Under the pieces are notes generated by a model, which did not search any database, was not told where the DNA came from, and worked only from the letters and a program-made list of their open reading frames with translations. This document shows, piece by piece, positions 1,785 through 30,859 of a stretch of 30,859 nt of DNA. A program made the translations under genes and the position numbers. The stretch lies in the IMG/VR virus record IMGVR_UViG_2740892488_000014; one strand, given 5' to 3'. This stretch comes from a virus (lineage: Duplodnaviria; Heunggongvirae; Uroviricota; Caudoviricetes). Position 1 is the first letter of the stretch. The number at the start of each line of letters is the position of its first letter.

Positions 1785-2488
1785 ATGGGTACGGCATTAA
1801 TTTCAAGCTTTATTAGTGGTGCAATAGCTATAATCTCTATTGCTATATCTACTTATAATCAGAATAGAATAAACAAGCTCAATGAATCACTGGATGTAAG
1901 GAGAAAACATCAGTACTATATTGAACCGTTAATTCGCTCAGCTTCAGACTTACAAAGCCGTATTTATAATATATTAGAATTGGGGTTCATTGAAGAGTTT
2001 TATCATAATGGGAATAAGCGCCAACAAGATTATGTTATCAACAATACTGTTTTTTCTTTTTTTCCCAGTTTTTTGCATGGACAGAAGCTGCCCGCATAGA
2101 CATTCAATACCTTAGCCTAGAAAAAAAATAAAAAAAATGAGGGAGTTTATTAGATTACAGAACAATATTAACTCATTAATCCAAACAGACGTCTTTGGTC
2201 AGTATTTTATGTTTTTCATAGGAGAGCAGAGAGCTATTGCAGAAAAGATGCTGATATCAACAGATACTGGATTTGATTGCATAGGTTACGGCAGTTTCAC
2301 AAAGGAAAATTGCTTTATCAATGAGCCATTTTTTTTTAGATTTAAACAATGAAGTGATAAATATGACAAGAGATATCGGAATTTATAAAGAAAGGCTAAT
2401 CAGAATACAGCACGCGTTAATCGATTTAATTAATTTTCTTGATCCTGGCATGATTCGATTTGACGGAAAAAAATATGGAAAAATATAA
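1785..2488 (+). CDS. Hypothetical ~233-aa protein with one N-terminal transmembrane helix; interrupted as sequenced at five homopolymer tracts
   Basis: AAGGA Shine-Dalgarno lies 7 nt before the ATG at 1785. The N-terminus GTALISSFISGAIAIISIAIS is hydrophobic. Track ORFs 1785-2099 and 2137-2352 plus the tail to 2488 join when one base is removed from each of two of the T6/T7/T6 runs (2050-2074), from A8 2121-2128, from A8 2130-2137 and from T9 2329-2337. The joined product reads ...NNTVF..FAWTEAARIDIQYLSLEK.KKMREFIRLQ...GEQRAIAEKM...INEPFFLDLNNEVINMTRDIGIYKERLIRIQHALIDLINFLDPGMIRFDGKKYGKI. Confidence 0.55.
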
Positions 2489-2673
2489 CCCAGATGATTC
2501 GTATCAAGGTAAGTTGCTATATGTATCAATTTAATTATGGTTGGGTGAAATTTATGTTAATAGTAGCGGAGGGTTAGTTAAAATATGCTCTCAGTGATTT
2601 TTGGATAGTTCTTTTATTTATCATTGAAAGTAAATATGTATAGCTTCAAGATTTACAAGTGAATCTGTTTATT

Positions 2674-2705
2674 GACAGTCCGCTTATGGCACAGAGCGGA
2701 CTGTC
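2674..2705. terminator. Perfect 11-bp stem-loop (GACAGTCCGCT / AGCGGACTGTC, 10-nt loop) downstream of the AT-rich cassette
   Basis: Inverted repeat read directly from the sequence. It is flanked by T/A-rich sequence (TGTTTATT before, ATATTAAATTT after) with no clean U-tract. Confidence 0.4.
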
Positions 2706-2904
2706 ATATTAAATTTGGCTCCACGCCATAGATGTGTCAGCTCATATCTTATCTAATACACACAATAACTTTCTCATTCTTGGAGAATTATTTTTTTAAG
2801 GGTAGGTGTTGACGTTAGAGCAAAAGAATGGTGATTTTTTTGATGTGTATTACGTTGGAACTGATGGGAATAACTATCTGTTTTCAACGCACTGCTAATT
2901 TATC

Positions 2905-2926
2905 AAGGCCCTTTGATCAGGGCCTT
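2905..2926 (-). terminator. Stem-loop terminator candidate for the ImmA/membrane-protein operon
   Basis: AAGGCCCT-ttgatc-AGGGCCTT (8-bp stem) lies 25 nt beyond the stop of the minus-strand gene that ends at 2951. Confidence 0.5.
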
Positions 2927-2950
2927 CGAAAGACTGTTGGACCGAGAGAG

Positions 2951-3557
2951 TTACTTGCGTTTAAAAAGGTATTTTGTCACGACCAGCACGAGGCCGAATA
3001 CCTCTGTCAAAGTACCGCCCATGTACAACTGTAGTGTTAAATCCTCAAATTCCAGCTTACCTGCGCCGTCGGCAATAAATACACCATTCATTATCAGAAG
3101 TTGGAAAGCAAGGATAATCAGGAACCATTTCCCGTATCGTTTTTTTAGAGCGATTTCTGCTTCAAAATCTTTGTTGTTGAGTTGTTTGCGCTCATGCTCG
3201 GTATCAAGTGAATTCACCTGTTTCACAGATGTGAACTCGGTCAAGATTTTACTCTCAGTACGGGTGACTTGTTGAGAGGGTGTAGCAGTTGGAATTCTTT
3301 TGCTAGACGCAGCTACAGCCATTTTGCGAGCTTCGGCAGCTCTTTTTCTGGCTATTCCGCGAATACGGACAGCCGTTTTTTTTGGGGGCGTGCGAAACCT
3401 TTGGCTGAGGTGAAGCTTCGTCAGGAGACTGAACCGGAGTTTCATCGTCCTCCGGCTCAACCTCTTCTGCTAACTGACGGTGTAGGTTGAGGGAATCCTT
3501 CAGTCTGCGTGCTACTTCCTGTTTGAAACGGCTGTTAAAATCGTCATCCGATGGCAT
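2951..3557 (-). CDS. Hypothetical ~201-aa protein: charged/disordered N-terminal half and a C-terminal two-TM domain; frameshifted as sequenced
   Basis: Track ORFs 3303-3557 and 2951-3460 overlap. They join (..SHAPKK|TAVRIRGIARK..) if one base is removed from the T8 run at 3376-3383. The C-terminus has two hydrophobic helices, WFLIILAFQLLIMNGVFIA and GGTLTEVFGLVLVVTKYLF. The gene starts 9 nt after the ImmA-like stop. Confidence 0.6.
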
Positions 3558-3566: not shown

Positions 3567-4056
3567 TTACCCCAACCTCAAGTTCTTTAAACGATAAGTC
3601 ATCGCATCGTCAGATACGCCAAAATAATGCGCCATTATATAACTTGGTTGACCGTCAGCGTGCAGTTTTCTGACCTCATCTACCGGCATCAGAAGTTCTG
3701 CTGCGAACTTGTTTGCAAAAATTTCATCAGGATGCGTTCCGGCGCTTGCGGTTTCGCCACGTAAATCAACGTACTCATATTCATCGCTATGCGATGCTTG
3801 CCGGGCGATGTAATGCCCCAACTCATGCCCACATGAAAAAACGTTGACGAACTTTGTTGTCATCACTGTTTAGAAAGATCGCTGGATCTTGATCTTTTTG
3901 TTTAATCAGTGCGCCAGAAACTTTCCCAGGAAGATCGGTAATAAAAACATCTAATCCCATGTCGTGAGCAATTTTCGCTGGATCAACAGGGAAACCACGC
4001 CCGCACCAGAACGTGTCCAGCACTCGCCGGGCGTGCTCTCTTGGGTTGGTAGCCAT
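3567..4056 (-). CDS. ImmA/IrrE-family (COG2856, DUF955) zinc metallopeptidase; frameshifted as sequenced
   Basis: Strong GGAGGAG Shine-Dalgarno. The HExxH motif in ...RQRF|SCGHELGHYIARQ... and the downstream FANKFAAELLMP are typical of the family. Track ORFs 3823-4056 and 3567-3866 join when one base is removed from the A6 run at 3836-3841. Confidence 0.8.
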
Positions 4057-4688: not shown

Positions 4689-4884
4689 AGTGATTCCTCA
4701 TGATATAAAGACCCAACAATATAAATTACCAGGCACATCATAAGATAGGGTTCCAGCCCATATTTTCAAATATTTGCAAGTATCACCGTTCAGTCTAAAA
4801 AGTTGGATGATGATTTAACGAGCCATAACAAAACCCTGCCTCGGAGGTTTTTTTCTTTTTTATAGAACTCAGCGGCGTGAAAAC

Positions 4885-5673: not shown

Positions 5674-5722
5674 AATGCCATAAAATACTGTATAAATATG
5701 GGTCTTCCCCGATCATGGTGGG
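5674..5722. repeat. Left (transposase-distal) terminal inverted repeat of the ISL3-family unit
   Basis: AATGCCAtaaaataCTGTATAaaTATGGGTCTTCCCCgatcaTGGTGGG. It overlaps a hairpin, GTCTTCCC (5702-5709) / GGGAAGAC (5720-5727), just past the transposase stop. Confidence 0.6.
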
Positions 5723-5727
5723 AAGAC

Positions 5728-6948
5728 TCAGTACGCCATATTCAGTTTCCCATAGTGGAACATAACTCCCAGTTTAAAGCGTTCCCGGTTTCGGTATCCC
5801 CTGGCCTTTATCCTCAGCAGTCTGATCTTGCTGTTCAGCGCCTCCGCATTTCCATTCGAGACGCGATGACGCATTGCATTCAGTATTCCGTATAACCGTT
5901 TTTTAATGGTTTTCGCTGCGTTTTTCATCATCGGCACATCACATTCAGACGCCAGCGATATCCACTGCAACCAGTCATTCCTGCGTTCTGTGCTCCAGGG
6001 GCGATCCCAGATATTTTTTGCCAGCTCTTTCAGTGTCCAGCACTGGCTTGTCTGTTGCATCTGTTCCCGCAACCACATCAGCTTTTCCTGCCGGGACTCA
6101 GTCATCCATTTGTCGCTGTACTGCCACAGGAAGCGGGTACCTTTGGCCTGACGACGACTTTCAACAGGGAGGTGCGGATGTTCATTCTGGCGGGTTTTAT
6201 CAACCACTTCGCCCAGTTGCTTCGCCACATGGAAGCGATCGAAGGCGATTTTCTCGACCGCATTGGGTAAATGGATACGCGCTGCTCTTATATAGCCCGC
6301 ATTCATGTCCATCGACAGTGTTTTGATGGCCAACAACTGACTGTCAGTAAGCGAACGGAGATAGCTGGCAAGACTCTCTGTGCCACGATCATCGGTTAAT
6401 GCCAGTGCCCGCCCGTCGCGATCAGATACCACGGTTATATACCTATGCCCTTTTTTAAAGGCGACTTCGTCTACATTCATATGACGCACTGATAAAGGCT
6501 TTTTAATCCGCGACAGGCCTCGCTTAACCGCGCGGGTCATGATGCCGTCAACGGCATTCCAGCTAAGTTTAAGTTGTTTTCTGACCGCATCAACGGTGCT
6601 GATTTTAAGCCATGAGAGCACGAACGATTCGAACAGCAGAGTGTACCGACTGCCGGAACCTGCCCACGGTACAGGCAGAGTCTGGCAGCCATGCTCCGGG
6701 CACATAACGCGGGGAACATCGGCTTCTACTAATGTCATGAACTGGCAGGTATCAAGGTGGCGCCATTTACGATGTCGGTGATCGTGAACAGAACAGGATT
6801 TCCTGCAGGTCGGACAGGTTAACTGAGTATTTTCAGCAATTCCGACTGTAACAGTAACGGAACCTGCATTTTCATCGAGGGTAAGGGATTTAACCTGCCA
6901 TGGTGCAGTCAGGTTAAGGATATGGGCATAGAGGGATTTTTCGTCCAT
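5728..6948 (-). CDS. ISL3-family transposase (N-terminal zinc-finger region plus DDE domain)
   Basis: Intact 406-aa ORF. CPTC...H..HR and CPEHGC zinc-binding motifs, then ...VDEVAFKKGHRYITVV...MDMNAGYI...NGNAEALNSKIRLLRIKARGYRNRERF, which is typical of ISL3 transposases. Confidence 0.9.
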   Translation of the reverse strand: MDEKSLYAHILNLTAPWQVKSLTLDENAGSVTVTVGIAENTQLTCPTCRKSCSVHDHRHRKWRHLDTCQFMTLVEADVPRVMCPEHGCQTLPVPWAGSGSRYTLLFESFVLSWLKISTVDAVRKQLKLSWNAVDGIMTRAVKRGLSRIKKPLSVRHMNVDEVAFKKGHRYITVVSDRDGRALALTDDRGTESLASYLRSLTDSQLLAIKTLSMDMNAGYIRAARIHLPNAVEKIAFDRFHVAKQLGEVVDKTRQNEHPHLPVESRRQAKGTRFLWQYSDKWMTESRQEKLMWLREQMQQTSQCWTLKELAKNIWDRPWSTERRNDWLQWISLASECDVPMMKNAAKTIKKRLYGILNAMRHRVSNGNAEALNSKIRLLRIKARGYRNRERFKLGVMFHYGKLNMAY

Positions 6949-6966
6949 ATAATTTCATTCTGAAGC

Positions 6967-7485
6967 TTACTTTAAACTGATATTATTATTTTTTGCCCAC
7001 TTTCTTAATCTTCCATTAGCGTTGGCGTAAGGCGAAGATGTGTTAAATGAGATCATTCTCCCCATCGTCCATTTTGTGTACCATGGTCTTCCATACAAAA
7101 TATCATCGGTACGATCATTAATAAGGTTCACAATCTCATTTTTTACAGTCTGAAGTTCAGCTACTAACAACTCATAACTTAACTCACTGTAATCTGAGTA
7201 AAATTTTTGAGCAAGAAGGCCAAGCTGATTCCATTTATAGCCAGTTTCCGGAAAATCGACAGGCAGACCTTTAGCATCAGAAGCGATCCACTTTACAACA
7301 AGAGCATTCCATCCAAGCAGATACGAAACGAGATCACGAACACTCATCTCCGTTCCTTTGGCGTGTCCGTCCATTGATTTATCTGAAGTAATTTCTGGTG
7401 GGATTGTGTTGAGGTAACTAATTAATTTACTAAAATTTTTATCAATAGCTAAAAGCAGTTCAGCTTTTGTTTGCGGCACACTCAT
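6967..7485 (-). CDS. ClbS/DfsB-family four-helix-bundle protein (DUF1706; colibactin self-protection homologue)
   Basis: 172 aa, GAGGG Shine-Dalgarno. From memory it aligns end to end with pks-island ClbS. Shared blocks are GHAKGT, LVSYLxGW (Tyr at position 55), FPExGxKWNxLGxLAQKFYxDY and LYGxPWYxKWTxGRMIxFNTxSPYxNAxGRL. Confidence 0.85.
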   Translation of the reverse strand: MSVPQTKAELLLAIDKNFSKLISYLNTIPPEITSDKSMDGHAKGTEMSVRDLVSYLLGWNALVVKWIASDAKGLPVDFPETGYKWNQLGLLAQKFYSDYSELSYELLVAELQTVKNEIVNLINDRTDDILYGRPWYTKWTMGRMISFNTSSPYANANGRLRKWAKNNNISLK

Positions 7486-7513
7486 AAGAATTCCCTCTCA
7501 TGTAAAAAGAGAC

Positions 7514-7541
7514 ACCATAAAGGTACTGTGTGGTGTTTGAA
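7514..7541 (-). promoter_or_regulatory. Candidate sigma70 promoter for the clbS-like/transposase transcript, just inside the right IR
   Basis: On the minus strand, TTCAAA (7541-7536), a 16-nt spacer and TATGGT (7519-7514), about 30 nt upstream of the ATG at 7485. Confidence 0.3.
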
Positions 7542-7561
7542 AATCGCTCAATTATGTACCA

Positions 7562-7607
7562 CCCACCACAACAGGGGAAGACCCATAAATATACAGGTTG
7601 TGGCATT
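7562..7607. repeat. Right terminal inverted repeat of the ISL3-family unit
   Basis: The reverse complement reads AATGCCAcaacCTGTATAttTATGGGTCTTCCCCtgttgTGGTGGG, which matches 5674-5722. Confidence 0.6.
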
Positions 7608-9545: not shown

Positions 9546-9929
9546 ATGTCTGAACCTCTAACCGCTGGCGTTGCTGCTGGCTCGGCGGGGGTGACGTTTG
9601 CTGCGTTATTTCCTGAGGCAACACCTGCAGTGATGATCTGTGCGCTGGCAGGCGCAGCTCTCTATGTGTTGTCGTCCGGGCAGCATCGATTCTGGAAGCA
9701 GGTTATTTTCGCACTCATTTCGTTTGTTGGCGGTGTGTATTGCGCTGAGACAGCGTCAGCCATCATTACCGGTATTCTGAACGCGGTGCTGAGTCACCTG
9801 AACCCTCCCGTAACAGTAAAAGTCTCTCCCGCCATTGGTGCACTGGTTGCATCAGTAATCAGCGTTACATCACTGTTGCGGATCATGTCACAAGCTCGTT
9901 TATGGAAATCAGATAAGGGGATGAAATAA
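9546..9929 (+). CDS. Holin candidate (127 aa, multi-TM)
   Basis: ATG at 9546 with AGGAAAAA upstream. The track start at 9465 lies in the promoter. There are three to four hydrophobic segments (VTFAALFPEATPAVMICALAGAALYVL; VIFALISFVGGVYCA; PAIGALVASVISV) and a charged C-terminus. It is the first gene after the late promoter. Confidence 0.7.
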   Translation: MSEPLTAGVAAGSAGVTFAALFPEATPAVMICALAGAALYVLSSGQHRFWKQVIFALISFVGGVYCAETASAIITGILNAVLSHLNPPVTVKVSPAIGALVASVISVTSLLRIMSQARLWKSDKGMK

Positions 9930-10203
9930 TGACCCTGCACTCTGTCCTCATCAATGCCAATGCAATTATTTGTCTGATGTTGGCACTACGGTTGATGTTT
10001 TTTCAAAAAACAGGCCGCTATCGTTTTTTTCATCTCACTAACTGCTTACCTCGCGATTCTGTCTGCTGCGTGGATAGCCCTACGAATTTTTTTACGGGAA
10101 ATATACGCAGGTTGATCCCGCAGAGTTCTTTCTCAACCTCACCATCTGTATTGCTGTCTGGCGGGCACGAGGGAATATTTCAAAAATAACAGGAGACAGG
10201 TAA
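9929..10203 (+). CDS. Second small lysis-cassette membrane protein (holin/antiholin-like, ~90 aa); frameshifted twice as sequenced
   Basis: Removing one T from each of the T7 runs at 10024-10030 and 10087-10093 gives MTLHSVLINANAIICLMLALRLMFFQKTGRYRFFISLTAYLAILSAAWIALRIFYGKYTQVDPAEFFLNLTICIAVWRARGNISKITGDR. Its stop overlaps the endolysin start (TAATG at 10201-10205). Confidence 0.6.
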
Positions 10204-11429: not shown

Positions 11430-11557
11430 GGAGATAGCCCCCTGGTCGCGGGTCCTTTCCGAAATCCAAAACACCGAGGGTCGGTAGACGCGCAAAAACT
11501 CGCTCGTTTTTAGTATTTTTTCATTTTGGGTATTTCCGGTTCCGGTGAGGATTTTTA
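11430..11557 (+). other. cos-like packaging site region (cosN/cosB candidate)
   Basis: It lies immediately upstream of the Nu1-like gene. GGTCGCGGGTCCTTTCC (11444-11460) resembles lambda GACCTCGCGGGTTTTCGC at the cohesive end. TTTTCATTTTGGGTATTTCCGGTTCCGGT (11518-11546) resembles lambda TTTATGAAAATTTTCCGGTTTAAGG. The TTCCG motif occurs three times. Confidence 0.4.
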
Positions 11558-12124
11558 ATGGCAAGTCAGGCTGAGGTTGCAGCACATTTACTGCTATCTG
11601 ATCGTCGTCTGCGCGATCTCGCAAAACTTCCGGGAGCACCAGTCCCACAAGGACGTGGTGATTGGGAGCTAGACGCATGGCGCCATTTTTATATTCGTTA
11701 TCTCCGGAGCAATAGACGCGACACAACTAGTAATGACGAACCGGAAGCGGGGGACAATTCTCCCGAAAAAAATCGCGAGCAGTGGCTGAAAAATGAGGAA
11801 CGACAGGAGCGAATCCTGATGGCACGAGTAAAACGCCGCATTCTCGCTAAACGCTACGCGCCAATTGAATTAATTAGCGTCGCTGTATCTCGCGTCGCCG
11901 TTGAATTACGTACCCGCGTCGAGTCGTGGCCACCACGCCTGAAAAAGGTCTGGCCGGAGATGCCGCAAGAGGCGAGCAGTGTATTACGAGAGGAGCTGGC
12001 GATAGCCTTAAATGAGTTGTCAGACATACGAATCGACTTCAGCGATTACGATGTCAGCGATATCGAACGCGATCTCGACAGGGTTGAATCCCTTGCGCGT
12101 GACGATACCGATGACGGGTGTTGA
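11558..12124 (+). CDS. Terminase small subunit (lambda Nu1-like)
   Basis: 188 aa. The N-terminal winged-HTH-like segment QAEVAAHLLLSDRRLRDLAKLPGAPVPQGRG...DAWRHFYIRYLR parallels lambda Nu1 (KKQLADIFGASIRTIQNWQEQGMPVLRGGGKG...AVIKWYAER). It overlaps the start of the large subunit. Confidence 0.75.
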   Translation: MASQAEVAAHLLLSDRRLRDLAKLPGAPVPQGRGDWELDAWRHFYIRYLRSNRRDTTSNDEPEAGDNSPEKNREQWLKNEERQERILMARVKRRILAKRYAPIELISVAVSRVAVELRTRVESWPPRLKKVWPEMPQEASSVLREELAIALNELSDIRIDFSDYDVSDIERDLDRVESLARDDTDDGC

Positions 12125-18529: not shown

Positions 18530-18543
18530 GTTAAGGAATCAAC

Positions 18544-18963: not shown

Positions 18964-19341
18964 GCTACTACGATGACCTCCGGGCCGGCGACGAGGAGAT
19001 GATCCGTGAGTGGGGACGGCCCGTTAAATTACGCGGTAAAACCGACCCCATTATCGCTATTTTCAACGAGCCTTACGCGCGCGTTGACGTTCCTCACGCT
19101 GGTTTTATTACCGGTACAGTAACGAGCCTGACGGCGCTCTCGGACGACGTCGCTGGCGTTGTTGCGCGTGACGTCGTCCAGGTTCCAAAGCAGCGCAGCA
19201 TCGAACCTGACGGCTCTGTTACCTGGTCTGGCTGGACCGATTACGTGGTTAAAGAGCCTCAACCTGATGGCACAGGGCTCACGAATATTTTTTTTAGAGC
19301 CTCACACGTCCAGCGAAAACAGCGAGTATTCAAAATACTAA
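18960..19341 (+). CDS. Head-tail connector (lambda FII-like position); frameshifted as sequenced
   Basis: The 18960 frame joins the 19159-19341 frame (..TNIF|LEPHTSSENSEYSKY*) when one T is removed from the T8 run at 19288-19295. The corrected stop at 19339-19341 sits exactly at the foot of the 19340-19361 stem-loop and before the next gene's Shine-Dalgarno. The functional call rests on position only. Confidence 0.5.
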
Positions 19342-19361
19342 GTGGGACCTCGGTCCCACTT
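19340..19361 (+). other. Intercistronic 9-bp stem-loop (AAGTGGGAC-ctcg-GTCCCACTT) without a U-tract
   Basis: Perfect inverted repeat read from the sequence. It is followed directly by the AAGGGGGAA Shine-Dalgarno and the GTG start at 19373. Confidence 0.5.
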
Positions 19362-19372
19362 AAGGGGGAACC

Positions 19373-20053
19373 GTGGCCGATTTACGTAGTAACGCGCAGA
19401 TGTTCGATATCGATGTTTCGGCGCTGGAGCAGCTCAGAGTCGAAATCAGCGCGACGCAACATCAAATGTTAATGGTATACAACAGGGCGCTGAACCGAAC
19501 TGCAAAACATATGCACCGAATTTCAGCAGGAATGATTTTGACTGCACTGGCAGCTAAAAATCATAAGGCCGTAGATAAACGAATCAAGCCGTTCATTAAG
19601 CGCCGTAATTTTACAAAAGAAGGGGCAGGAGACCTGAGCAGCGCCAAGCTCTGGTACGGTCTGAATGATTTCCGGGTATCTGAGCTAAAGGGGCGATTAC
19701 AAAATCCACGGAGGCAAAAACAGCCTCGCGATCTTGAGACCGGCCTGTTTTTGAAAACCAAAAAAGGCGCTAGAGGGGCAACTTTTACACCCAAAAGTGC
19801 AGGGCTGGCGATGATGAGTTGGCCCGATTCATTCGTAGCGAAACGCTACGGTGCGAAAAGTGTCTGGATTCGACTGGATCGCGGAGGAATCGAAGAGGCT
19901 CGCGTACCTGTGCACGACGCGCTGGAGGATGCTATCGATGATTATATTTTTGAAAACATTGGCCCTGTTTTTATGGGCTTTTTTGAGAAAGATTTGCGCG
20001 GTCGCGTGAAAGGTAATGTCCACGTAGACCCAAAAACAGGTAAACGATTATGA
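19373..20053 (+). CDS. Virion neck/tail-completion protein (function inferred from position only)
   Basis: Intact 226-aa ORF with a GTG start after a strong Shine-Dalgarno. It is translationally coupled to the next gene (ATGA) and lies between the head-joining and baseplate genes. Confidence 0.45.
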   Translation: MADLRSNAQMFDIDVSALEQLRVEISATQHQMLMVYNRALNRTAKHMHRISAGMILTALAAKNHKAVDKRIKPFIKRRNFTKEGAGDLSSAKLWYGLNDFRVSELKGRLQNPRRQKQPRDLETGLFLKTKKGARGATFTPKSAGLAMMSWPDSFVAKRYGAKSVWIRLDRGGIEEARVPVHDALEDAIDDYIFENIGPVFMGFFEKDLRGRVKGNVHVDPKTGKRL

Positions 20054-20586
20054 GCGGACTGGATGCATTTGACGAATATCTTGATCGCGTTAAAGGCGCG
20101 GTTTTACAAATACCGTTCATCAAAACATTCGGAATTTATCCGGAAATTCCGGCTGGATTTGAAACGCCAGCTCTGTTCCTGGAAATCAGCAACTGGTCAC
20201 AGAGTGACGAATCGGTTCCAGGCTCAATTCAGTCAGTCGAGCTGTCGTGTAATTTGTATTTGCTGCGTGAATTTGCAGCTGATCAGTACGGACTGAAATC
20301 GCAGAATGCAGCGCTCTATATGACGAGCTGGATCAATGGGCGAATGTTCGGTCCCGGAACTAAACCGGCAAAATTCAGCGACGCGGAACCGTGCGACTGG
20401 ATTAAAAACGGGCAGTCAGTCGGTTCGCATTCAGTTCAGTGCGTGTCGTTCACGCAGGTTGTAGGCGTTGGTCCAGATATTTTCGATTATCCCTCACAGG
20501 GGACCCTGAAAAATATATACGTCGGAATAGCACCAGATATCGGCGCAGAACATGAGGGCGACTATTATGGCCCAATCGGACGATGA
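20050..20586 (+). CDS. Virion neck/tail-completion protein (function inferred from position only)
   Basis: Intact 178-aa ORF that overlaps both of its neighbours. I recognise no motif. Confidence 0.45.
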   Translation: MSGLDAFDEYLDRVKGAVLQIPFIKTFGIYPEIPAGFETPALFLEISNWSQSDESVPGSIQSVELSCNLYLLREFAADQYGLKSQNAALYMTSWINGRMFGPGTKPAKFSDAEPCDWIKNGQSVGSHSVQCVSFTQVVGVGPDIFDYPSQGTLKNIYVGIAPDIGAEHEGDYYGPIGR

Positions 20587-21469
20587 ATATGCTGCAGCGG
20601 AGAACGCGCGCAGGCTGCGTGACGCAGTTAAACGCGGCACGATAGCTGCAGTTAAAATGAATCCTCCACGCTGCCGAGTCTCATTTGGTGGCGAACACCA
20701 GTCAGGCTGGCTGCAGTGGTTTACTCACGCCACCTCAGAACGCGTCGACTGGAGCGCACCATCAGTGGGCGATCCCGTTACTGTTGTTTCTGAGGGTGGG
20801 GATACGCGGAACGGTGTAGTTATGCTCGGGCTGCACATTGACGACAAAGCTCCGCCAAGCAATGACCCCCATGATCATGTCACTGCATACTGTGACGGGG
20901 CTACGATGACGTATAACACAAAAAATCACACTCTGACATGGCAGGGCGTACCGGACGGCGTGGTAAAAATACTCGGTGAGTCTGAAATAGAAATATTTGG
21001 ACGCGCAGATGTTACTATTAATAGCGAAAATGTAGTTAATATCCATGGTGGGAAATTAATTAACGCAGACGCTGATATTATTAATGTCACAGCGACAGAT
21101 ACAATTAACGCACATGCTGATTTAGTGAACGTTATAGCAACGAGTTCTGTTAGTGTTACTGCTGCGAACAGAATATCGCTGACAGCTCAAACAATCAGCG
21201 CGTGGGCTCCGGGTGGTATAACACTAGCTGGTCCAACGCATATTACCGAGACATTAGTAGTAGATAAATTAGCGACATTCCGTAACGATATTTCTGTCAC
21301 TGGAGATAACGGTGGAACAGGTAATATCACAACTCGCGGTAGTGTGTTAGCAGGGCAAGAGGTGCAGGACCGACAAGGCACAATAACTGAAGTCCGCACA
21401 ACGTATAACGGACACACTCATATATGTCCGGACGGGGAAACTCAACAACCGAACCAACCAATGGCGTAA
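20567..21469 (+). CDS. Baseplate hub/spike protein (P2 gpV-like) with an extended beta-helix-like C-terminal region
   Basis: ATG at 20567 with GAGGG 8 nt upstream. RGTIAAVKMNPPRCRVSFGGEHQSGWLQWF...WSAPSVGDPV parallels P2 gpV (RTGIIVETDLNAGRCRVQTGGMCTDWLQWL...WWAPSVGEQV). The C-terminal HTHICPDGET parallels P2 HTHKHPGDSG. Confidence 0.85.
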   Translation: MAQSDDEYAAAENARRLRDAVKRGTIAAVKMNPPRCRVSFGGEHQSGWLQWFTHATSERVDWSAPSVGDPVTVVSEGGDTRNGVVMLGLHIDDKAPPSNDPHDHVTAYCDGATMTYNTKNHTLTWQGVPDGVVKILGESEIEIFGRADVTINSENVVNIHGGKLINADADIINVTATDTINAHADLVNVIATSSVSVTAANRISLTAQTISAWAPGGITLAGPTHITETLVVDKLATFRNDISVTGDNGGTGNITTRGSVLAGQEVQDRQGTITEVRTTYNGHTHICPDGETQQPNQPMA

Positions 21470-21471
21470 AG

Positions 21472-21813
21472 ATGCTTGGAATGGACCGTAACACCGGTAA
21501 ACTTTTATCGGGGACTGATCACATTCGTCAGTCTATCGTTGATATTTTAACGACCCCGCTGGGGACGCGTGTAATGCTGCCGGAATATGGCAGCAAATTA
21601 TTTGATCTTGTTGATAATCCCACAGATCCGTCGCTTGCTATGCGAATAATCATGGAAAGCGCTGGCGCAATAGCACGATGGGAACCACGCGTCAGAATTG
21701 ACAGAATAAATGTGTTAGCAGTGGATATCGGGAAAATAACAATATTAATTATCGCAACAGATATCGAAACACAACAGCGATTAGAGTTTAATAATATGGA
21801 GCTGATATTTTGA
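21472..21813 (+). CDS. Baseplate wedge protein (P2 gpW / GPW_gp25 family)
   Basis: MLGMDRNTGKLLSGTDHIRQSIVDILTTPLGTRVMLPEYGS parallels P2 gpW (YLGMNRSDGLTVTDLEHISQSIGDILRTPVGSRVMRRDYGS). Confidence 0.88.
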   Translation: MLGMDRNTGKLLSGTDHIRQSIVDILTTPLGTRVMLPEYGSKLFDLVDNPTDPSLAMRIIMESAGAIARWEPRVRIDRINVLAVDIGKITILIIATDIETQQRLEFNNMELIF

Positions 21814-22730
21814 TAACATCAACAGTTCAGAATTCGATAGTGAAAACTATTGATATGAGTCTGCTGCCGCCGCCAGCATTCGTTAAAACCCCGTTATTTT
21901 CAGATGTTAAATCTAATCTACTGTCAGAGCTGCAGATATTATATCCACAATTTAACGCACTCCTGGAGTCAGACCCGGCCGTTAAACTGCTGGAAATAGT
22001 TGCATACAGAGAAATCATTATTACAGCTCGGGTAAATCAGGGGATGCTCGCTGTATTGCTCGCGTTTGCAAAGGGGAGTGACCTCGACCAGATTGGCGCT
22101 AATTTTGACTGCCTGCGGCTGTTGATAACGCCAGCTAATCCCGATGTAATTCCCCCGACTGAGGCTGTTTACGAGAGTGACGACGAGTATCGACACCGAA
22201 TACAGCTATCATGGTATGCGCGGAATACTGCCGGCAGTACGAACGCCTATAACTATTTCGCGCTGTCGAGTGATCCCGACGTTCTGTCAGCTCAGGCGTA
22301 CGGCCCGCCGGTGACCCAGCCTGGATACGTCGATATGTATGTCTTGTCGCGAACCGGCGACGGCACTCCGCCTCAATCACTACTGAATACAGTGAATGCG
22401 GCCCTGTCTCCTGACGATACTCGACCGCTGACTGATTTCGTGACTGTAAAACCTGCGTCGAACCTGAATTACCGGGTTGAGGCCGTTATCGTAGCCGGGC
22501 TCGGACCCGACCAGAACGTTTTGCTTAACGGTGCTCAGAGCGATTTGGCGATATATGTGGATACGCAACATAAAATCGGAGCGACGGCAGCTCTGTCAGG
22601 AATTTACGACGCGATACATCGTGACGGCACTGAACGTGTGATTCTGATATCGCCAACAGAGGATGTGATCGCTGGCGTCGGGCAGGCTCCGTACTGCACA
22701 GAAATCAAACTCAGCGTGCAAATGGGGTAG
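21810..22730 (+). CDS. Baseplate wedge protein (P2 gpJ-like)
   Basis: 306 aa, with a TTG start overlapping the gpW stop. Blocks such as DPAVKLLEIVAYREI and DDEYRHRIQLS parallel P2 gpJ (EPLVKLLEENAYRELI, DTDYRLRIQQA). Confidence 0.88.
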   Translation: MITSTVQNSIVKTIDMSLLPPPAFVKTPLFSDVKSNLLSELQILYPQFNALLESDPAVKLLEIVAYREIIITARVNQGMLAVLLAFAKGSDLDQIGANFDCLRLLITPANPDVIPPTEAVYESDDEYRHRIQLSWYARNTAGSTNAYNYFALSSDPDVLSAQAYGPPVTQPGYVDMYVLSRTGDGTPPQSLLNTVNAALSPDDTRPLTDFVTVKPASNLNYRVEAVIVAGLGPDQNVLLNGAQSDLAIYVDTQHKIGATAALSGIYDAIHRDGTERVILISPTEDVIAGVGQAPYCTEIKLSVQMG

Positions 22731-22732
22731 CC

Positions 22733-23359
22733 ATGACAAGTCAAAGCGTACTGCCTCCGAACGCAATAACCCCTGAGAGGGCGCTTGAGGTTGTTTTATC
22801 TCACGTCGGCGATCTGCCTGGCGATATTCGAATTATTAAAAATCCCGATTTGTGCCCTGCAAATCTGTTGCCGTGGCTGGCGTGGGAGTACGCGGTCACC
22901 TACTGGAACCCCGACTGGAGTGAGCAGCAAAAACGCGAAATTATTAAAGCAGCTGCGTGGCAGAATAAGCACCGCGGAACGCGTGGAGCTGTTGAACGAG
23001 CGTTATTAACTGTTGGCTTTGAGAGCAAAATGAGAGAGTGGTTTGAAGCCACGCCCAGGGACGACCCGTATACATTCGCAATTAAAATATATCTGCTAAA
23101 AAGCATGGGGTTAGATTTAGAACTATTGAATACATTTATTGCACAAATATTTGATGCAAAAAATTGTCGTTCCTTATTAAAAGAAATAAATTTCGAAACG
23201 GGTGTCGATGGTGAGTTTTTTATAGCCGGTACACCTTACGCGAAAATAGGCGTAAACGTCCCAGCAGACGGCGACGGCGGTGTAAAAATTAACGGCGGGC
23301 TATATATATCGGGCTCACCAATTGTTAGTTTAAATGTGGAGATAGGGCCAAATGGCTGA
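22733..23359 (+). CDS. Baseplate/tail-fibre attachment protein (P2 gpI-like)
   Basis: NPDLCPANLLPWLAWEYAV...W matches P2 gpI NPDTCPANLLPWLAWAFSVDRW. Confidence 0.88.
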   Translation: MTSQSVLPPNAITPERALEVVLSHVGDLPGDIRIIKNPDLCPANLLPWLAWEYAVTYWNPDWSEQQKREIIKAAAWQNKHRGTRGAVERALLTVGFESKMREWFEATPRDDPYTFAIKIYLLKSMGLDLELLNTFIAQIFDAKNCRSLLKEINFETGVDGEFFIAGTPYAKIGVNVPADGDGGVKINGGLYISGSPIVSLNVEIGPNG

Positions 23360-24536
23360 AAATAAAATTTACGCAGTACTGACAGACCGTGGCGCACAAC
23401 TTGAAGCCGCTGCGCTGGCATCGGGTGTACCCGTGGTGCTGAATAAATTCGTTATTGGCGACGCAAACGGAAACGACGACGTAACACCGGACCCGGCACG
23501 AACTGCATTAATTCACGAGACGTATCGTGGGGATATTAAATCCGCAGAAAATAGCGGTAACCAGGTTATCTTTACACTTTACGTACCGCCAGACACTGGG
23601 GGCTATACTATCCGTGAGGTGGGGATATTAACAGATAAAGGCGAGCTGTACTCTGTGGCGCGCTCGCCGGACATTTTAAAACCTACGGACAGCAACGGTG
23701 CGCTGATTTCAATCACGTATAAATACACACTCGCGGTGTCCAGCACATCTACGGTTAATGTTGTAGTATATGACAACTACGTAACTCCCGAGGAAGCTGA
23801 CAAAAAATATTTGCAGATAAGTAAAAACTTATCTGAAATTCCCGCAAATGGTGAAACTGCTCAGCAGGCTGCGCGGAAAAATATTGGTATAGATGGGGAC
23901 GTTGCATATAGAGATAAGGGTAATGCATTTACTCATCCAAATACTTTTAAAGATGATGTGATTTTTGAAGACGTTTTATCCTCTAAAAAACAAATAAATA
24001 TAAACAAACCGGGCACTGATTTGACGTTGTTTTCATTTGCTGGTTTATCAGATGTGTCGGGCGATTATTTAGATTTTTCGACCCGTGGAGAAAACAATCA
24101 GAAGGTTTTTTATAGATTACGCGGAGTTCACTATGATGGCCTGGTGTTACTGTGCGGCGGGCAGACGTATAAATACTGGAATGAGGCTAATCTTAAACCG
24201 GTTAAAACGATTAACGGGGAGTCGCCGGATGAAAATGGCAACATAGATATAAGTCTTTCACCGGACCCATCACCGGAAATAGGTGTTGTTGGCGCGGTTG
24301 GTACTTATGCGCTTGTCGCTATTAATCATGCACCACAAATACTCCCGGGCTCCATATGGGCTGGAGGGGATTTATATTACGCTAGTATAAATAATACCGG
24401 TTCATATAACACGGATATTGCCACAAAACCATTTTATGACACACCACTTATTGGCTCATGGCGAGCCATGGCGTATTCACCCGGTGGAGTCGGTGATATT
24501 GGGACTGCCTGTTTTTTAGCTATTAGGATTGCGTAA
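23352..24536 (+). CDS. Tail fibre protein (P2 gpH-type N-terminus, DUF3751; divergent low-GC distal part)
   Basis: The N-terminus YAVLTDRGAQLEAAALASG..VLNKFVIGDANG...IREVGILTDKGELYSVAR is typical of the conserved fibre shoulder. YLQISKNLSEI...AARKNIGI is the usual junction motif. The C-terminal receptor-binding part is unrelated and AT-rich. Confidence 0.85.
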   Translation: MAENKIYAVLTDRGAQLEAAALASGVPVVLNKFVIGDANGNDDVTPDPARTALIHETYRGDIKSAENSGNQVIFTLYVPPDTGGYTIREVGILTDKGELYSVARSPDILKPTDSNGALISITYKYTLAVSSTSTVNVVVYDNYVTPEEADKKYLQISKNLSEIPANGETAQQAARKNIGIDGDVAYRDKGNAFTHPNTFKDDVIFEDVLSSKKQININKPGTDLTLFSFAGLSDVSGDYLDFSTRGENNQKVFYRLRGVHYDGLVLLCGGQTYKYWNEANLKPVKTINGESPDENGNIDISLSPDPSPEIGVVGAVGTYALVAINHAPQILPGSIWAGGDLYYASINNTGSYNTDIATKPFYDTPLIGSWRAMAYSPGGVGDIGTACFLAIRIA

Positions 24537-24925
24537 TGATAAGCGTTGATTCATTTAGAAAAATAACAAACCCTGTTTTTAATGACGAGCATGGGTTATC
24601 TATAAATATTATTTGCGATATTGACGGGATTGGAAACGACATTCCATTCACCGCAATGAAAAATGATTGCGAGGAACACGGTAGGGTTTTATATGAAAGA
24701 GCGCTGAGCGGGGATTATGGGAGCATTTCTAAATTTGTAAAAAAAGAGCAGACGCAAAAACTCCAGACTACATTACGGACTGTTGGCGATCTGTCAATTG
24801 AGGCATTCTCAATTCAGTGTGCAGTAGATGCCGGAACCGCATCTGACGCGCAAATCGAAAATTTGGCCGAGCTTAAAGAAGCAATAGCGACGCGAATTGG
24901 TGAAAATAGAGAAGGAATAAAATGA
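24536..24925 (+). CDS. Tail fibre assembly chaperone candidate (gpG/Tfa position)
   Basis: 129-aa ORF overlapping the fibre stop (TAATG). It has the usual position and size, is low in GC like the fibre tip, and shows weak motif support only. Confidence 0.5.
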   Translation: MISVDSFRKITNPVFNDEHGLSINIICDIDGIGNDIPFTAMKNDCEEHGRVLYERALSGDYGSISKFVKKEQTQKLQTTLRTVGDLSIEAFSIQCAVDAGTASDAQIENLAELKEAIATRIGENREGIK

Positions 24926-26425
24926 GCGTAACTAATTTTTTACACGGTATTCGCACGCTCGAATACGACGACGGCACAAAAGAGATCAACACAGTAGATA
25001 TTTCCGTGATTGGGATTGTTGGTACTGCTCCCGATTCCAGCTACCCAACTTGTGCATCACTATTATGGGGATCAGAGCTCGCAGACAATCTTGTTGAGTT
25101 TTCGACTGTCATGCCAGGGGCCGACGGAAACAACTGGATTGTTGAAATTGTTGATTTGGGAATTAACGGGAATGTAGCAACTCCAGGATACAGCACACTG
25201 CCCGACGGTTCGAGAAAATTAACAATGATCACGGACGGTGCCATGACCCCGTCAAAAATGTACGATCAGAACCAGCAGTATAAAGAAGGACTCCAGATTG
25301 GAGAATATATTAACGTCACATTCGGTGGTGATCACGCAGGAACGGGGACTGTATTCGCGCTCCCCCCAACAAATTTATCCGGTGGTAAAGACGAATCGTT
25401 CAAATATAATGTTCCGACGTTAATTGCAGGCAGTCAAAAAAAAAGCTGGATTGCTCGGTGGGTCTGGAACCCTTCCTCCCGCTGTATCTGAAATACTAAA
25501 TCAGGAGGATGCCATTATTGTTGTTGTCCGCGTCGAAGAGGACAGCGACGAAACAAAAATGCGGCAGAACGTCGTTAACGGGATTAACGCATTGTTGACG
25601 TCTGCGCAAATAAATCAAGTAACGCCGAGAATTTTAATCGCTCCAGATTATAGTGCTAACGATTATATTGCAGAACAACTTGAAGTGGTGACAAATAAAT
25701 TACGAGGCGTTGGATATATCGATTCACCGCGAGGCGCTACGCCTGCTGACGTTGTAAATCGTCGTCAGAGGTACGGCGGCAGAATGGAAATTCTGCGCCC
25801 TCGTGTTTATTCTACGAGTGATGTTAGTGGTTTATCTCGTCCGTATTCAGCTATCGCTGCTGGTTTACGAGCCAGAATTGATAACGAAAAAGGGTTTTGG
25901 TGGAGCAAATCGAATCAAAATATCTACGGAATTACAGGACTCGAACAAGTCGATGATTTTATAATCGGTGAAACGAACTGCACAGCAAATCTGCTGAACG
26001 CCAGCCAGGTCAGCACAATTATTCGCTATGATGGATTCAGACACTGGGGTAACTATCTGTGTAGCCTCAGTCCCCAATGGTCCTTTGAATGCGTTCGTCG
26101 GACAGCTGACGTAATTGAGGATTCAATAGCCCGGGCAATGATGACCGATTTTATTGATCGCCCGATAGACCTGCACCTCGGAACAGACGTTGTAGAGTCG
26201 ATAAACGCGTATCTGCATAAATTAGAGGAGCAGGGCGCGATTAACGGAGGACGGGCGTGGTTAGATGAAGAGTTAAATACAAAAGAAAGTCTGGCCGCTG
26301 GTAATCTTTATATTAATGTTGACTTTGGACCGAAATCCCCGGCACAAACAATTACGTTAATGTACCGCATTAATAATGATTACACAGTTGAAGCTCTGGC
26401 CTCTCTTTTTAAAGAAACAGTCTAA
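24922..26425 (+). CDS. Contractile tail sheath protein (P2 FI-like); frameshifted as sequenced
   Basis: The N-terminus FLHGIRTLEYDDGTKEINTVDISVIGIVGTAP parallels P2 FI [30 protein letters not shown]. The later block LLNASQVSTIIRYDGFRHWGN parallels LLNESGVTTLIRRDGFRFWGN. Track ORFs 24922-25491 and 25424-26425 join at the A9 run at 25436-25444. Confidence 0.92.
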
Positions 26426-26442
26426 TAATCTGGAGAATTGAT

Positions 26443-26955
26443 ATGGCAGATAGTAACACCTATCGTGCATTTGCGTTGTTCGTCCAGGGAGAACGAGTTT
26501 TAAATTGCACTGAATACACTCCCGTCGATATGAAAATAATCGAAGATGATTTTAAGACGGGCGCTATGGATACAGCTATCACTCTGGACGGGGGAATGGA
26601 GAAAATGTCAGCCAGTTTTAAAGTCTCTGGCTCCGATTCTGGTGTGATGGGGTATTTGGGATTAATACCAGGTGCTAAAACAAGGTTCGAAATTCGAAGT
26701 GCATATACTGACAATTACGGTGTCAATTTTGAACGTATTGATACATATGAGGGGCTTATTACGGCGATTACTGATGACGCGCAGGGGACTGATTCAAAAT
26801 CAGCAGTTGGGCAATCAGTAACGATTGCGCCGAGCTATTATAAACGAGTTCAAAATGGAAAAATTATTTACGAGATTCATCCTGCAAAAATGAAACGAGT
26901 AATTAATGGTGTTGACGTTCTTGCGGGCGTTGCTCGTATTCTCCATGTATATTAA
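26443..26955 (+). CDS. Tail tube protein (P2 FII-like)
   Basis: 170-aa ORF directly after the sheath gene. Its size and position are typical of the family. Confidence 0.8.
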   Translation: MADSNTYRAFALFVQGERVLNCTEYTPVDMKIIEDDFKTGAMDTAITLDGGMEKMSASFKVSGSDSGVMGYLGLIPGAKTRFEIRSAYTDNYGVNFERIDTYEGLITAITDDAQGTDSKSAVGQSVTIAPSYYKRVQNGKIIYEIHPAKMKRVINGVDVLAGVARILHVY

Positions 26956-26967
26956 AAGGCAAATAAA

Positions 26968-27249
26968 ATGGAATCATTATTAGACAGTATGACTATTACG
27001 CTCTCTCGCCCGTTTATTATTAAGGGGGAGAGCCGCGATACAATTACTATTCGCGAACCAAAATTACGCGACCGCATTATGTTCAGTAACGATAAAAGTG
27101 GTCTTGAAGAGCGGACAGCGACAATGCTGGCGCGCCTGGCAAATCTGGAGCGTGAGGATTTATATGCACTGCCTGCGTGCGATTACGATCAAATGGAGGC
27201 CGCATTTAACGAACTGGTAAAGCCTCCGAAAGACCGACATCAGATATAG
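26968..27249 (+). CDS. Tail assembly chaperone gpE-like
   Basis: 93-aa ORF between the tube and tape-measure genes. Confidence 0.75.
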   Translation: MESLLDSMTITLSRPFIIKGESRDTITIREPKLRDRIMFSNDKSGLEERTATMLARLANLEREDLYALPACDYDQMEAAFNELVKPPKDRHQI

Positions 27250-27380
27250 TTATTCTGATTCCGTTTATTGCGAAAAAACTTGCCATCCCGCCCGATACGC
27301 AAATGGACCTGCCGTACCGGGTTTTTAATTTCTATGTAAACGAGGTCATGAAAATCGATGGCTATTTCTCAAAACTTTAA
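26968..27380 (+). CDS. Tail assembly chaperone E+E'-like fusion made by programmed -1 frameshifting
   Basis: The -1 frame is open from 27210 to the TAA at 27378-27380 (..IVILIPFIAKKLAIPPDTQMDLPYRVFNFYVNEVMKIDGYFSKL) and overlaps the tape-measure start. The candidate slip site is GGTAAAG at 27216-27222, which is non-canonical. Confidence 0.5.
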
Positions 27381-28997
27381 AACGCAGGTTGTATTCGGTG
27401 GGCGAATAGACCCGTCGTTTCGTCGCGGTACAACAGAACTCAATGATGCGATTCGGCAGACGTCGTCTACTGTCGGGAAATTAACGAAAAGTCAGGATAA
27501 ATTAAAAGACAAAATCGCAGCAATGAAACTGGCAGGTAAAGACGTTTCTGATTTATCTGCTCAGTATCAAAAGCTGGACCGTCGAATAAAAGCGACAACG
27601 CAGGACCAGGAGGCGCTGAATACTCAACTTGCTAAAAAACAGCGGCTGGAGAAGTGGACGGGTCGCGCAAAAGGAGCTGCAAAATGGGGCGGACGAGCCG
27701 CCGCAGGTGCGGTGAGGGCTACGGGGCGGGGTATCAAATGGGGGACACTTGGCGCGGCAGGGCTCATTGGCGGTGCTGCAGCTGGTGCGCTGGCAATGAA
27801 TGCAGAGACGTCAGAAAAACTCGGTCTGGCGAAGTCCTACGGCGTTGGCGTCGAAAAATACGCTGCGTGGGAAAATATTGGTAAAGCCGCGGGCCTGAAC
27901 GGCGAAAATATCGGGGATTTGTCTGAAGAACTTACAAATAAAATCGGCGAAATCGGAAACGAAAAAAGCCTGAATCCCATGTTATTTCAAATTGGCCTGA
28001 CGAAAAAACGAATGGCTGGCTGGGATCGGGAAAAACAGTTTAATGAGGTTATGCGTCGCATCTCTGAAATGAAAGATGAGAAGCAAGCGGCGAGCCTCGC
28101 TGACCAGCTCATGGGGGGCGAGGCTAATAAGATCATGACGTATATGAAGGCGACGGGTAAAAGCTGGGAACAGACAATGTCTGACGCGCAAAAGTCGAAT
28201 TTGTTAACAAAAGAGGGTGCGGAAGGGGCGGCGCGTGCGCATGTATCAGTGACAAATCTGTGGGGCTCTATTACGTCGGGACTTGCAGATACACTCGGTA
28301 AAATCGGGGGGGAACTCGCGCCGACGTTTGACTCAGTACGTGAAACATTTACATCCTGGTTTAAGGATAATCAGGGTGGTTTTGTCAGCACAATTACTGA
28401 GTGGGTAAAACCAGAAAATATGAAAAAATGTGGGATGGCATCGTCAATTTTGGAGAAGGTTGCGTCAAATTCGGGAAGATTATATGGGCTGTCGTAAAGA
28501 AACTGGAGTGGCTTATTCCGGATGAAAAATCAGATGAAGAACAGAAAACTTATAATGACGAATATAATCGGGCATATCAAGAGTTTATGGATTCGGGAGG
28601 TAAATATTCACCGAACGCTGGATTGACTGCTGATAATATTGCGAAGGCAAAAGCCGAAGAGGCTGTCGAAAATATGCGGCATCCAGAACGGCAAGAACAG
28701 GCAAAATCTCAGGCAGAATCAATGCTCGCGTTTGTTAATCCATTATCCGGGATGGTAAATAAAAATACCGCGCCTGCAGCACTGGATTCGTCGACGTTAA
28801 ATATTGATACGTTGAAGCAGGCAGTCTCGACACCTGCGCCGGAGCAAAACAATAAAATCGAAATCAATATTGTCGGTGCGACAGATCCGCAGTCAATACA
28901 ACAATCTGCAGCGTCGGGGGTGCTCGATGGACTGAGACAGGCTGCGAGTTCGTACAATCGTGGCGCGATGTTTGATAAACCAGCTGCGGCGGGGTGA
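27358..28997 (+). CDS. Tail tape measure protein (P2 gpT-like); frameshifted as sequenced
   Basis: It is coiled-coil and Gly/Ala-rich with a hydrophobic WGTLGAAGLIGGAAAGALA segment. Track ORFs 27358-28497 and 28401-28997 join (..ENMKK|MWDGIVNFGEG..) if one A is added to the A6 run at 28423-28428. Confidence 0.85.
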
Positions 28998-29422
28998 CAA
29001 TGAGTGATGCAATAAACGGTGCTGAGGATATCATGCTCGGCCTGGGTGATTTCATTTTTGCTATATCAACAGTAGCGTACAACAAACTGCAACGTAGTGA
29101 CGCCTGGCGCTGGGCTCAGCAAACACGATTCGGGAAAAACGACGCGTTGCAGATAACCGGACGACCGAACCCCACAATTACTATCGATGGAAAGATAAAC
29201 GCTTTATTTCTTGACGGGTGCGGCGTCGGCCTGTTGACAGATTTGCGAGCGCTCGGGAACACGGGAGAACCCCAGCAGCTAGTGCTGGGGACCGGGGAGG
29301 TGAAAGGGTACTGGGTGCTGCGAGAACTAACTGAAACGCAAAACAGCTTTTTGATGGGCGGAACACCTAAATCGCAGGACTTTTCACTCACGCTCGAATA
29401 TTATGGAGCTTCGCTAGATTAA
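28994..29422 (+). CDS. Tail protein gpU-like
   Basis: 142-aa ORF overlapping the tape-measure stop, in the conserved T-U-X-D order seen in P2-type tails and R-type pyocins. Confidence 0.75.
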   Translation: MTMSDAINGAEDIMLGLGDFIFAISTVAYNKLQRSDAWRWAQQTRFGKNDALQITGRPNPTITIDGKINALFLDGCGVGLLTDLRALGNTGEPQQLVLGTGEVKGYWVLRELTETQNSFLMGGTPKSQDFSLTLEYYGASLD

Positions 29423-29597
29423 TACAAAATCAAGCGCTACCAGAGCACTTAACAAGTATAAAAATAATAAAAAAAAACTACGAACATAAATGTAAAACAA
29501 CCTGATGGTATTTTTTTTTGACGCCGAAATACTAATACCTCTCCGACTACTAAAATTAATTCTCATTATGAAATCCTTTTAATTAATGGGGCCCCAA

Positions 29598-29811
29598 ATG
29601 ATTACATACACTACACGGGACGGTGACCGTCTCGATCAGATCTGCCTTGCGGTCTACGGGAGAGCGTCAAAAACGACAGAGACTGTTTTATATCAGGTTT
29701 CGAATTACGGCGTAACGGATATGTGTGCCGTGTTTCGTGCTGGAGAAAAAAATTGTTTTACCAGATATCGAACCAGAGCCGGTTAAAAAAGAAACGCAAT
29801 TATGGGATTGA
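29598..29811 (+). CDS. Tail protein gpX-like (LysM-like); frameshifted as sequenced
   Basis: MITYTTRDGDRLDQICLAVYGR...TVLYQ parallels P2 gpX (MKTFALQGDTLDAICVRYYGR..ETVLAAN). Removing one A from the A7 run at 29746-29752 restores ..AGEKIVLPDIEPEPVKKETQLWD*, ending 3 nt before the gpD-like ATG. Confidence 0.8.
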
Positions 29812-29814
29812 TGA

Positions 29815-30859
29815 ATGAGTGATTACGTAAATACTGGCGTGGAGGCGTGGAAACCTAATTTTTATATATCTGCTGATAATAAAAACATCACGGATAAAAT
29901 AAGAAAAGGTTTGATCAATATCACGCTGACAGATTACGGCGGCTCCAGTAAACAGACAGACGAACTCCGCGTAGCAATAGTTTCTGAAACTCTGAAAATT
30001 CCGGCCCGCGGAGTAAAAATCAGTATTGGGCTCGGTTTCGGTAATCAGATAATTGATAAAGGGATATACATCGTTGACGGTGCTAGCAGTGGCGGTGAAC
30101 CCCGGGTAGTTGATTTCACAGCAAAAGCGGCTCCGATGAACGCAGCAAAAGGATCTCCGACAGTTCAGAGCAAAAAGACTCGTTCCTGGAGCGACGTCAC
30201 TGTCAGCGATATCGTTGCGACAATAGCGAGCGATAATGGGCTAAAACCACGCGTATCAAAGCGGTTTGCAGACAATGTTATCACGCAACTCGATCAGGTC
30301 GGCGAGTCAGATATGCACCTGATGTCGCGGCTCGCAACGAGATTCGATGCGGTGAGTAAACCCGCGGGCGGGTACTGGATATTCCTGCCGCGCGGCGCGG
30401 GCGAATCTGTTAGCGGTGCTCCGCTCCAGCACTACACGCTAACTCGTCGTGATAACTCCAGCTGGGGCTATTCGAGAAATGGACAAAGTGGCGATAGTGG
30501 TAGCGGTGGCGAAAATCCGGAACCGACGTATCTGATTAAATATCACGACACAGCAACTGGGCAGATCAAAGAATTGCGGACAAGGTAGTGGCGGCGATCC
30601 TGTCATTGAATGGCCGGCAGTTGAGCCGTCGCTCGACGCAGCGAAAGAAGCTGCACCAGGGCTCAAGGGCGGTGCAGCTAAAAAAGAGTTCTCTATGACG
30701 TACACGACGCCAGCGACGCTCGATTTAGTGTCGCTGACAGCAGAATGCAAAGTCACAACTCAAGGTTTCGGGACCGAGGAGGACCGGGACTGGACTATCA
30801 ACACACTGAGTCTGACGCTCGCTGAAAACGGTTTTTCGGTTCGGCTGTCTCTGGAGTAA
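29815..30859 (+). CDS. Tail late-control/baseplate hub protein gpD-like; frameshifted as sequenced
   Basis: The N-terminal part is the 29815-30588 ORF. The C-terminal part is in the next frame (..GSGGDPVIEWPAVEPSLDAAKEA...EEDRDWTINTLSLTLAENGFSVRLSLE*) and parallels the P2 gpD C-terminus (..IDEQDWTITKVTHFLNNSGFTTSLELE). The junction is near 30580-30585 (ACAAGG), with no long homopolymer. Confidence 0.85.

Follow-up and report, generated by a model that had tools for sequence, protein, structure and literature searches.

Introduction

Single-base insertions and deletions (indels) in homopolymers, which fragment genes, are a recognised dominant error in long-read assemblies (PMC12007338). Mutation-accumulation lines of mismatch-repair-defective Escherichia coli acquire 6.02 substitutions as compared with 0.85 indels per coding sequence (PMC8510543). 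Here we examine a 30,859-nucleotide stretch of viral DNA, IMG/VR record IMGVR_UViG_2740892488_000014 (the window), which, judged by sequence comparison, is one copy of a prophage widespread among E. coli of the sequence type 131 (ST131) kind, with lambda-like head genes and P2-like contractile tail genes. A previous reading of the letters alone (the sequence-only reading) had attributed frameshifts in many genes of this window to systematic homopolymer error and not to decay, and had proposed comparison with close relatives as a check.

That comparison bears the attribution out. Relatives carry the genes intact, and one of them, E. coli S65EC, lacks all 19 single-base indels of the window; these 19 come with no substitutions, depend on run length, are nearly one-directional and are private among about 440 genomes. 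As far as alignments can tell, the 19 indels, which break 11 genes, are very probably systematic homopolymer-length miscalls of one assembly and not decay. The finding is a data-quality warning of low biological novelty.

Results

Alignment to near-identical prophages

As the main reference we used S65EC, which has the window's 1,885-bp insertion of the insertion sequence (IS) ISEc53, and as the second reference strain 4/4. Positions 544-30859 of the window form a single colinear alignment with S65EC, which contains 0 substitutions and 19 single-base indels over 30.3 kb, a density of about 0.63 per kb. Eighteen of the 19 add one base, to a T run in 10 cases and to an A run in 8; the remaining one is a loss (A7 to A6 at 28423) in the tape measure gene. 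Against strain 4/4 the window aligns in two colinear blocks around the 1,885-bp window insertion, with 20 single-base indels and 1 substitution. Nineteen of these indels are the same; the twentieth is a difference in a G tract and the substitution is a single-nucleotide polymorphism (SNP), and at both sites S65EC agrees with the window.

The 19 indels are given below with the run found in the window, its positions and, in brackets, the run in relatives. Minus marks the strand where it was recorded.

1785-2488, hypothetical gene (232 amino acids, aa): T6 at 2050-2055 (T5), +1
1785-2488, same gene: T7 at 2057-2063 (T6), +1
1785-2488, same gene: A8 at 2121-2128 (A7), +1
1785-2488, same gene: A8 at 2130-2137 (A7), +1
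1785-2488, same gene: T9 at 2329-2337 (T8), +1
2951-3557, minus, hypothetical gene (201 aa): T8 at 3376-3383 (T7), +1
3567-4056, minus, ImmA/IrrE metallopeptidase: A6 at 3836-3841 (A5), +1
Intergenic: T7 at 4848-4854 (T6), +1
9929-10203, holin family: T7 at 10024-10030 (T6), +1
9929-10203, same gene, second indel: T7 at 10087-10093 (T6), +1
12111-13974, TerL, terminase large subunit: T6 at 12896-12901 (T5), +1; product 620 to 292 aa
15778-17086, S49 prohead protease, gpC-like: T8 at 15859-15866 (T7), +1; product 435 to 42 aa
17474-18509, major capsid protein: A7 at 18313-18319 (A6), +1
18960-19341, head-tail joining protein, FII-like: T8 at 19288-19295 (T7), +1
24922-26425, sheath: A9 at 25436-25444 (A8), +1; product 500 to 189 aa
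27358-28997, tape measure: A6 at 28423-28428 (A7), the sole -1
Intergenic: A9 at 29469-29477 (A8), +1
Intergenic: T9 at 29511-29519 (T8), +1
29598-29811, tail protein X: A7 at 29746-29752 (A6), +1

Sixteen of these indels break 11 annotated genes, and three are intergenic. All 11 genes are annotated as intact in relatives by the NCBI Prokaryotic Genome Annotation Pipeline (PGAP), and their protein accessions recur across the relatives inspected. Because the DNA is otherwise identical to that of S65EC, correcting the indels restores the intact PGAP proteins. Programmed ribosomal frameshifting was rejected as an account of the 11 genes, since relatives encode each of them in a single frame.

The homopolymer junctions at which the sequence-only reading had placed its frameshifts, eleven in all, are each found where it had put them and each lie one base off intact relatives. 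It had held that two of the three T runs at 2050-2074 in the 232-aa gene are changed, and indeed the third, T6 at 2069-2074, is unchanged. It had also singled out the tape measure gene as the only one needing an added A, which agrees with the window's A6 and the relatives' A7, the other 18 indels all being +1. Its list of genic homopolymer sites was right; the three intergenic +1 sites, at 4848, 29469 and 29511, had escaped it. Where it had counted 13 or more interrupted genes, we count 12, namely the 11 with private indels and a gpD-like tail gene discussed below.

Run length and direction

All 19 indels lie inside A/T runs of at least 5 bases. Such runs make up 3.3% of the aligned sequence, and chance would place all 19 there with a probability of about 8e-29. 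Insertions outnumber deletions 18:1, a bias with a binomial P of 8e-5. Grouped by their length in the reference, A/T runs were altered as follows.

4 bases or fewer: 0 of 889 (0%)
5 bases: 3 of 109 (2.8%)
6 bases: 6 of 52 (11.5%)
7 bases: 6 of 17 (35%)
8 bases: 4 of 4 (100%)

Thus the probability of error climbs with run length, as expected of an artefact, and every change is of exactly one base, including those in all four 8-base runs. Since intergenic runs are altered too (3 of the 19), the distribution of the indels tracks homopolymer content and not gene function. The 232-aa accessory gene, at 32% GC, takes five indels because it is rich in runs. This gene lies in a low-GC (32-34%) accessory region at 1000-3000 within the prophage and is called 'lysogenic protein' in one genome; its neighbours are the genes for the 201-aa hypothetical protein and the ImmA/IrrE peptidase, on the opposite strand.

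A dependence on run length would also be seen if the indels were real and replication slippage had turned many of the prophage's genes into pseudogenes, as might happen in a strain lacking mismatch repair or with a slippage-prone polymerase. Slippage in mismatch-repair-defective E. coli likewise becomes more frequent in longer runs, and its hot spots are A/T runs (PMC8510543). Real lesions do accumulate in this prophage lineage, as a frameshift in the gpD-like gene and two IS insertions attest, and an intergenic G8/G9 tract truly varies among assemblies. Nevertheless, we regard this explanation as very improbable. At the ratio found in the mismatch-repair-defective lines (PMC8510543), 19 indels predict about 135 substitutions, and a mutator would leave substitutions, mainly transitions, in an excess of about 7:1 over indels; against S65EC there are 0 substitutions and 19 indels. 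Although all four 8-base runs and 35% of 7-base runs are changed, each change is of a single base, and of the 19 changes 18 go the same way. Were slippage this close to saturation, runs would be both lengthened and shortened, some by several steps, so that changes of one base in almost one direction argue for artefact. Furthermore, no indel is inherited by close relatives with the same ISEc53 insertion. Some unusual process that lengthens A/T runs by one base without substitutions could in principle make the tract lengths real; a weaker version would treat only the T7/T8 tract of the protease gene and the G8/G9 tract as slippage switches. We give this idea hardly any credence.

Privacy of the indels among other genomes

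The late region of the prophage (11500-30859) is present in 442 complete E. coli genomes at a coverage of at least 80%, nearly all of them at an identity of at least 99% (BLAST). Across this region, the best of the 442 genomes has 1 of 11 indels in common with the window, and the next-best among the matches listed have none. At 2020-2360, where the 232-aa gene holds five insertions, none of 413 genomes carries at least 3 of the five, and the best matches carry none. The strains that share the ISEc53 insertion (S65EC, Ec55, S103EC and AREA_487) are without the early-region indels, and S65EC is without all 19. In searches for the source assembly itself, exact scans for the double A8 junction in viral, genome and metagenome collections gave no match, nor did exact-product look-ups of two frameshift-specific truncated proteins. 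Among the genomes compared, the set of indels is private to one assembly and absent from independent, near-identical genomes.

The single indel seen elsewhere is the T8 tract of the protease gene (15859), found in 1 of 441 genomes, that of strain 21221 (NZ_CM190152.1; 16778-18086), whose protease gene, T7 to T8, is flagged 'frameshifted' by PGAP. This second, independent assembly could be taken to mean that some tracts are phase-variable or heterogeneous in the population, so that a real minority or majority length was reported, the other indels being errors. The G tract at 1214-1221, with G8 in 185 genomes and another state in 224, would fit such a view. We consider it extremely improbable. 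At the protease tract, 438 of the 441 genomes match at 98.5%, the single difference expected of T7, and it is hard to see what regulatory use a frameshift in an essential head protease would serve. The other T8 genome belongs to a series in which a sister assembly, that of strain 23366, has an ISEc52 transposase likewise flagged 'frameshifted'; this suggests a recurrent error at the tract and not shared ancestry. The protease tract is the one tract that was tested individually, and the other tracts are of reference length in the best-matching genomes. The G tract, for its part, is not among the 19 indels.

With respect to the G tract itself, the window and 185 complete genomes have G8, and the 224 others differ by one position. 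Strains 4/4 and 23366 have G9. Isolates of a single series can disagree, since strains 4/0, 4/1-1 and 2/0, of the series of 4/4, have G8. Either the tract is truly prone to slippage, or assemblies are repeatedly ambiguous at it. It was rejected as a twentieth artefact of the window, because G8 also occurs in S65EC and 184 other genomes.

A real frameshift in the gpD-like tail hub gene

The twelfth interrupted gene, the last one in the window, behaves differently.

29815-30859, plus, gpD-like tail hub gene: extra A at 30582/3; a 257-aa N-terminal open reading frame (ORF) at 29815-30588, then the C-terminal part in the next frame to 30859

The sequence-only reading had noted a frameshift near 30580 with no long run and had listed it among the interrupted genes. 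The frameshift exists, and it is a genuine mutation. We located the junction by tblastn with the gpD protein of Hafnia phage yong2 (372 aa): its residues 3-255 match one frame as far as the stop at 30588, and its residues 259-343 match the next frame, in which the match extends to the last position of the window. The allele of strain AR_0089 is intact, with 1,044 nt encoding 347 aa, and comparison with it then placed the extra A, which turns GGACAGG into GGACAAGG and so makes AGG-TAG (the stop ends at 30588). Unlike the 19 indels, this A lies outside any homopolymer run. In Pfam, the gpD fragments gave only a sub-threshold match to Phage_GPD.

Most relatives share the identical 1045-nt gpD-like sequence, and the junction is exact in 364 of 435 complete genomes, with 69 that differ. 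A further artefact was rejected on this ground, and the frameshift must instead be a true inherited mutation of the lineage in most carriers. In most strains of the ST131 type it is probably the genuine defect of this prophage. In a minority of carriers the gene is intact, and the allele would predict which strains are still able to make tails.

Insertion sequences

Two further lesions interrupt the prophage.

1-543, end of ISEc52 (IS3-like): interrupts an accessory gene of the LprI family (lysozyme inhibitor); same junction in strain 23366
5700-7584, ISEc53 (ISL3-like): 1,885 bp; target duplication of 8 bp, ATAAATAT; terminal inverted repeats, GGGTCTTCCCC
5728-6948, minus, ISEc53 transposase
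6967-7485, minus, ISEc53 passenger ORF, ClbS/DfsB family

ISEc53 separates two early genes and lies upstream of the late regulatory region, ahead of the DUF1367, DUF1364 and Q genes; its insertion is common to a subset of several genomes. Because the window starts inside ISEc52, the left part of the prophage is outside view. Both insertions are real lesions, common to other strains.

Inherited, shared and mixed lesions are what a decayed prophage presents. The gpD-like frameshift, ISEc53 and ISEc52 have this character; the 19 indels do not. The sequence-only reading had gone on to state that this is not a dead prophage. This exceeds the evidence, because the tail hub frameshift and the two IS insertions persist after the 19 indels are corrected, and the statement is therefore not established.

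Layout of the prophage

The window holds prophage and IS DNA only, without core chromosomal DNA. In relatives, PGAP annotates a full prophage at this locus, the leuZ tRNA cluster, with pgsA and yecA on either side, and the matching strains include named O25b:H4-ST131 isolates. The integrase adjoins the tRNA-Leu/Cys/Gly cluster and is grouped with regulators and a replicative helicase. A second group consists of antiterminator Q, holins and endolysin. The lambda-like head set consists of terminase, gpW, portal, S49 protease, decoration protein, major capsid protein, FI and head-tail joining protein, and the P2-like tail set of baseplate V/W/J/I, fibre, sheath, tube, chaperone, tape measure, U, X and D.

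The late region is matched at 99.8-100% by four GenBank phage records, vB_EcoM-705R4, 720R5, 569R10 and 783R5; the full-length match is of reference length, which rules these records out as the source of the window. The one paper that mentions the name has clustered regularly interspaced short palindromic repeats (CRISPR) spacers as its topic, and it makes no statement on induction. The error-prone ST131 genome NA114 was rejected as the source too: what the literature records for it is misassembled islands and not homopolymer errors, and it has no known link to the window.

Downstream of the stop of the gpE-like tail assembly chaperone gene, a -1 frame stays open toward the tape measure gene (26968-27358), an arrangement that fits the E/E' programmed frameshift layout of P2-type phages. 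Inspection of this interval, by eye only, revealed no canonical slippery heptamer. None of the 19 indels falls within it.

Discussion

From the positions of the indels, their direction, their dependence on run length, the lack of substitutions and their privacy, all of which are seen directly in the alignments, we infer a cause in sequencing or assembly and not in mutation. Zero substitutions, saturation without spread, privacy and indifference to function all support artefact. In the mechanism we propose, the source assembly would have miscounted long A/T homopolymers, almost always adding one base, and the chance of such a consensus or base-calling error would rise steeply with run length. 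As a result, 11 intact genes would be split on paper only. Beneath these errors there are three real lesions common to other strains: the gpD-like frameshift, ISEc53 and ISEc52.

Three observations weigh against this explanation. Insertions dominate in the window, unlike in the deletion-dominated nanopore assemblies of PMC12007338. G/C runs of at least 5 bases are unchanged in 21 of 21 cases; had they been hit as often as A/T runs, about 2.3 would have changed (P ~0.05). Finally, the T8 tract of the protease gene is seen again in one independent assembly. Because none of the 21 G/C runs is altered, the process is specific to A/T.

Automated annotation of the window would report 11 false pseudogenes, including those for terminase, protease, capsid, sheath and tape measure, in a prophage that is intact for those genes in hundreds of ST131-type genomes. 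It would be wrong to infer from the window a dead prophage or novel short ORFs. Given a density of about 0.6 indels per kb, the remaining source assembly probably needs polishing before any analysis of gene content or pseudogenes.

How, then, does the window compare with known systems? Decayed cryptic prophages of E. coli resemble it in so far as its element has inherited lesions, namely the gpD-like frameshift, ISEc53 and ISEc52. In real decay, however, related strains inherit the lesions in common, and substitutions occur alongside deletions and IS insertions, whereas the 19 indels are private, uniform and without substitutions. The 454 draft of EC958, a strain of the same ST131 clone, when compared with its PacBio assembly also showed single-nucleotide indels in tracts of at least 5 bases, mostly of A or T (PMC4134206, Table 2). 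There the sites numbered 15 in 5.1 Mb (PMC4134206) as compared with 19 in 30 kb here, which is roughly 200 times denser. The window is also like the homopolymer errors of long-read or flow-based sequencing that are fixed by Kastor and Homopolish: these are single-base changes, confined to homopolymers and commoner in longer runs and in A/T runs (PMC12007338). They too produce apparent frameshifts and split genes that are exposed by comparison with close relatives (PMC12007338). The window departs from them in its ratio of insertions to deletions, 18:1, and in its untouched G/C runs, the nanopore assemblies of PMC12007338 having had more deletions.

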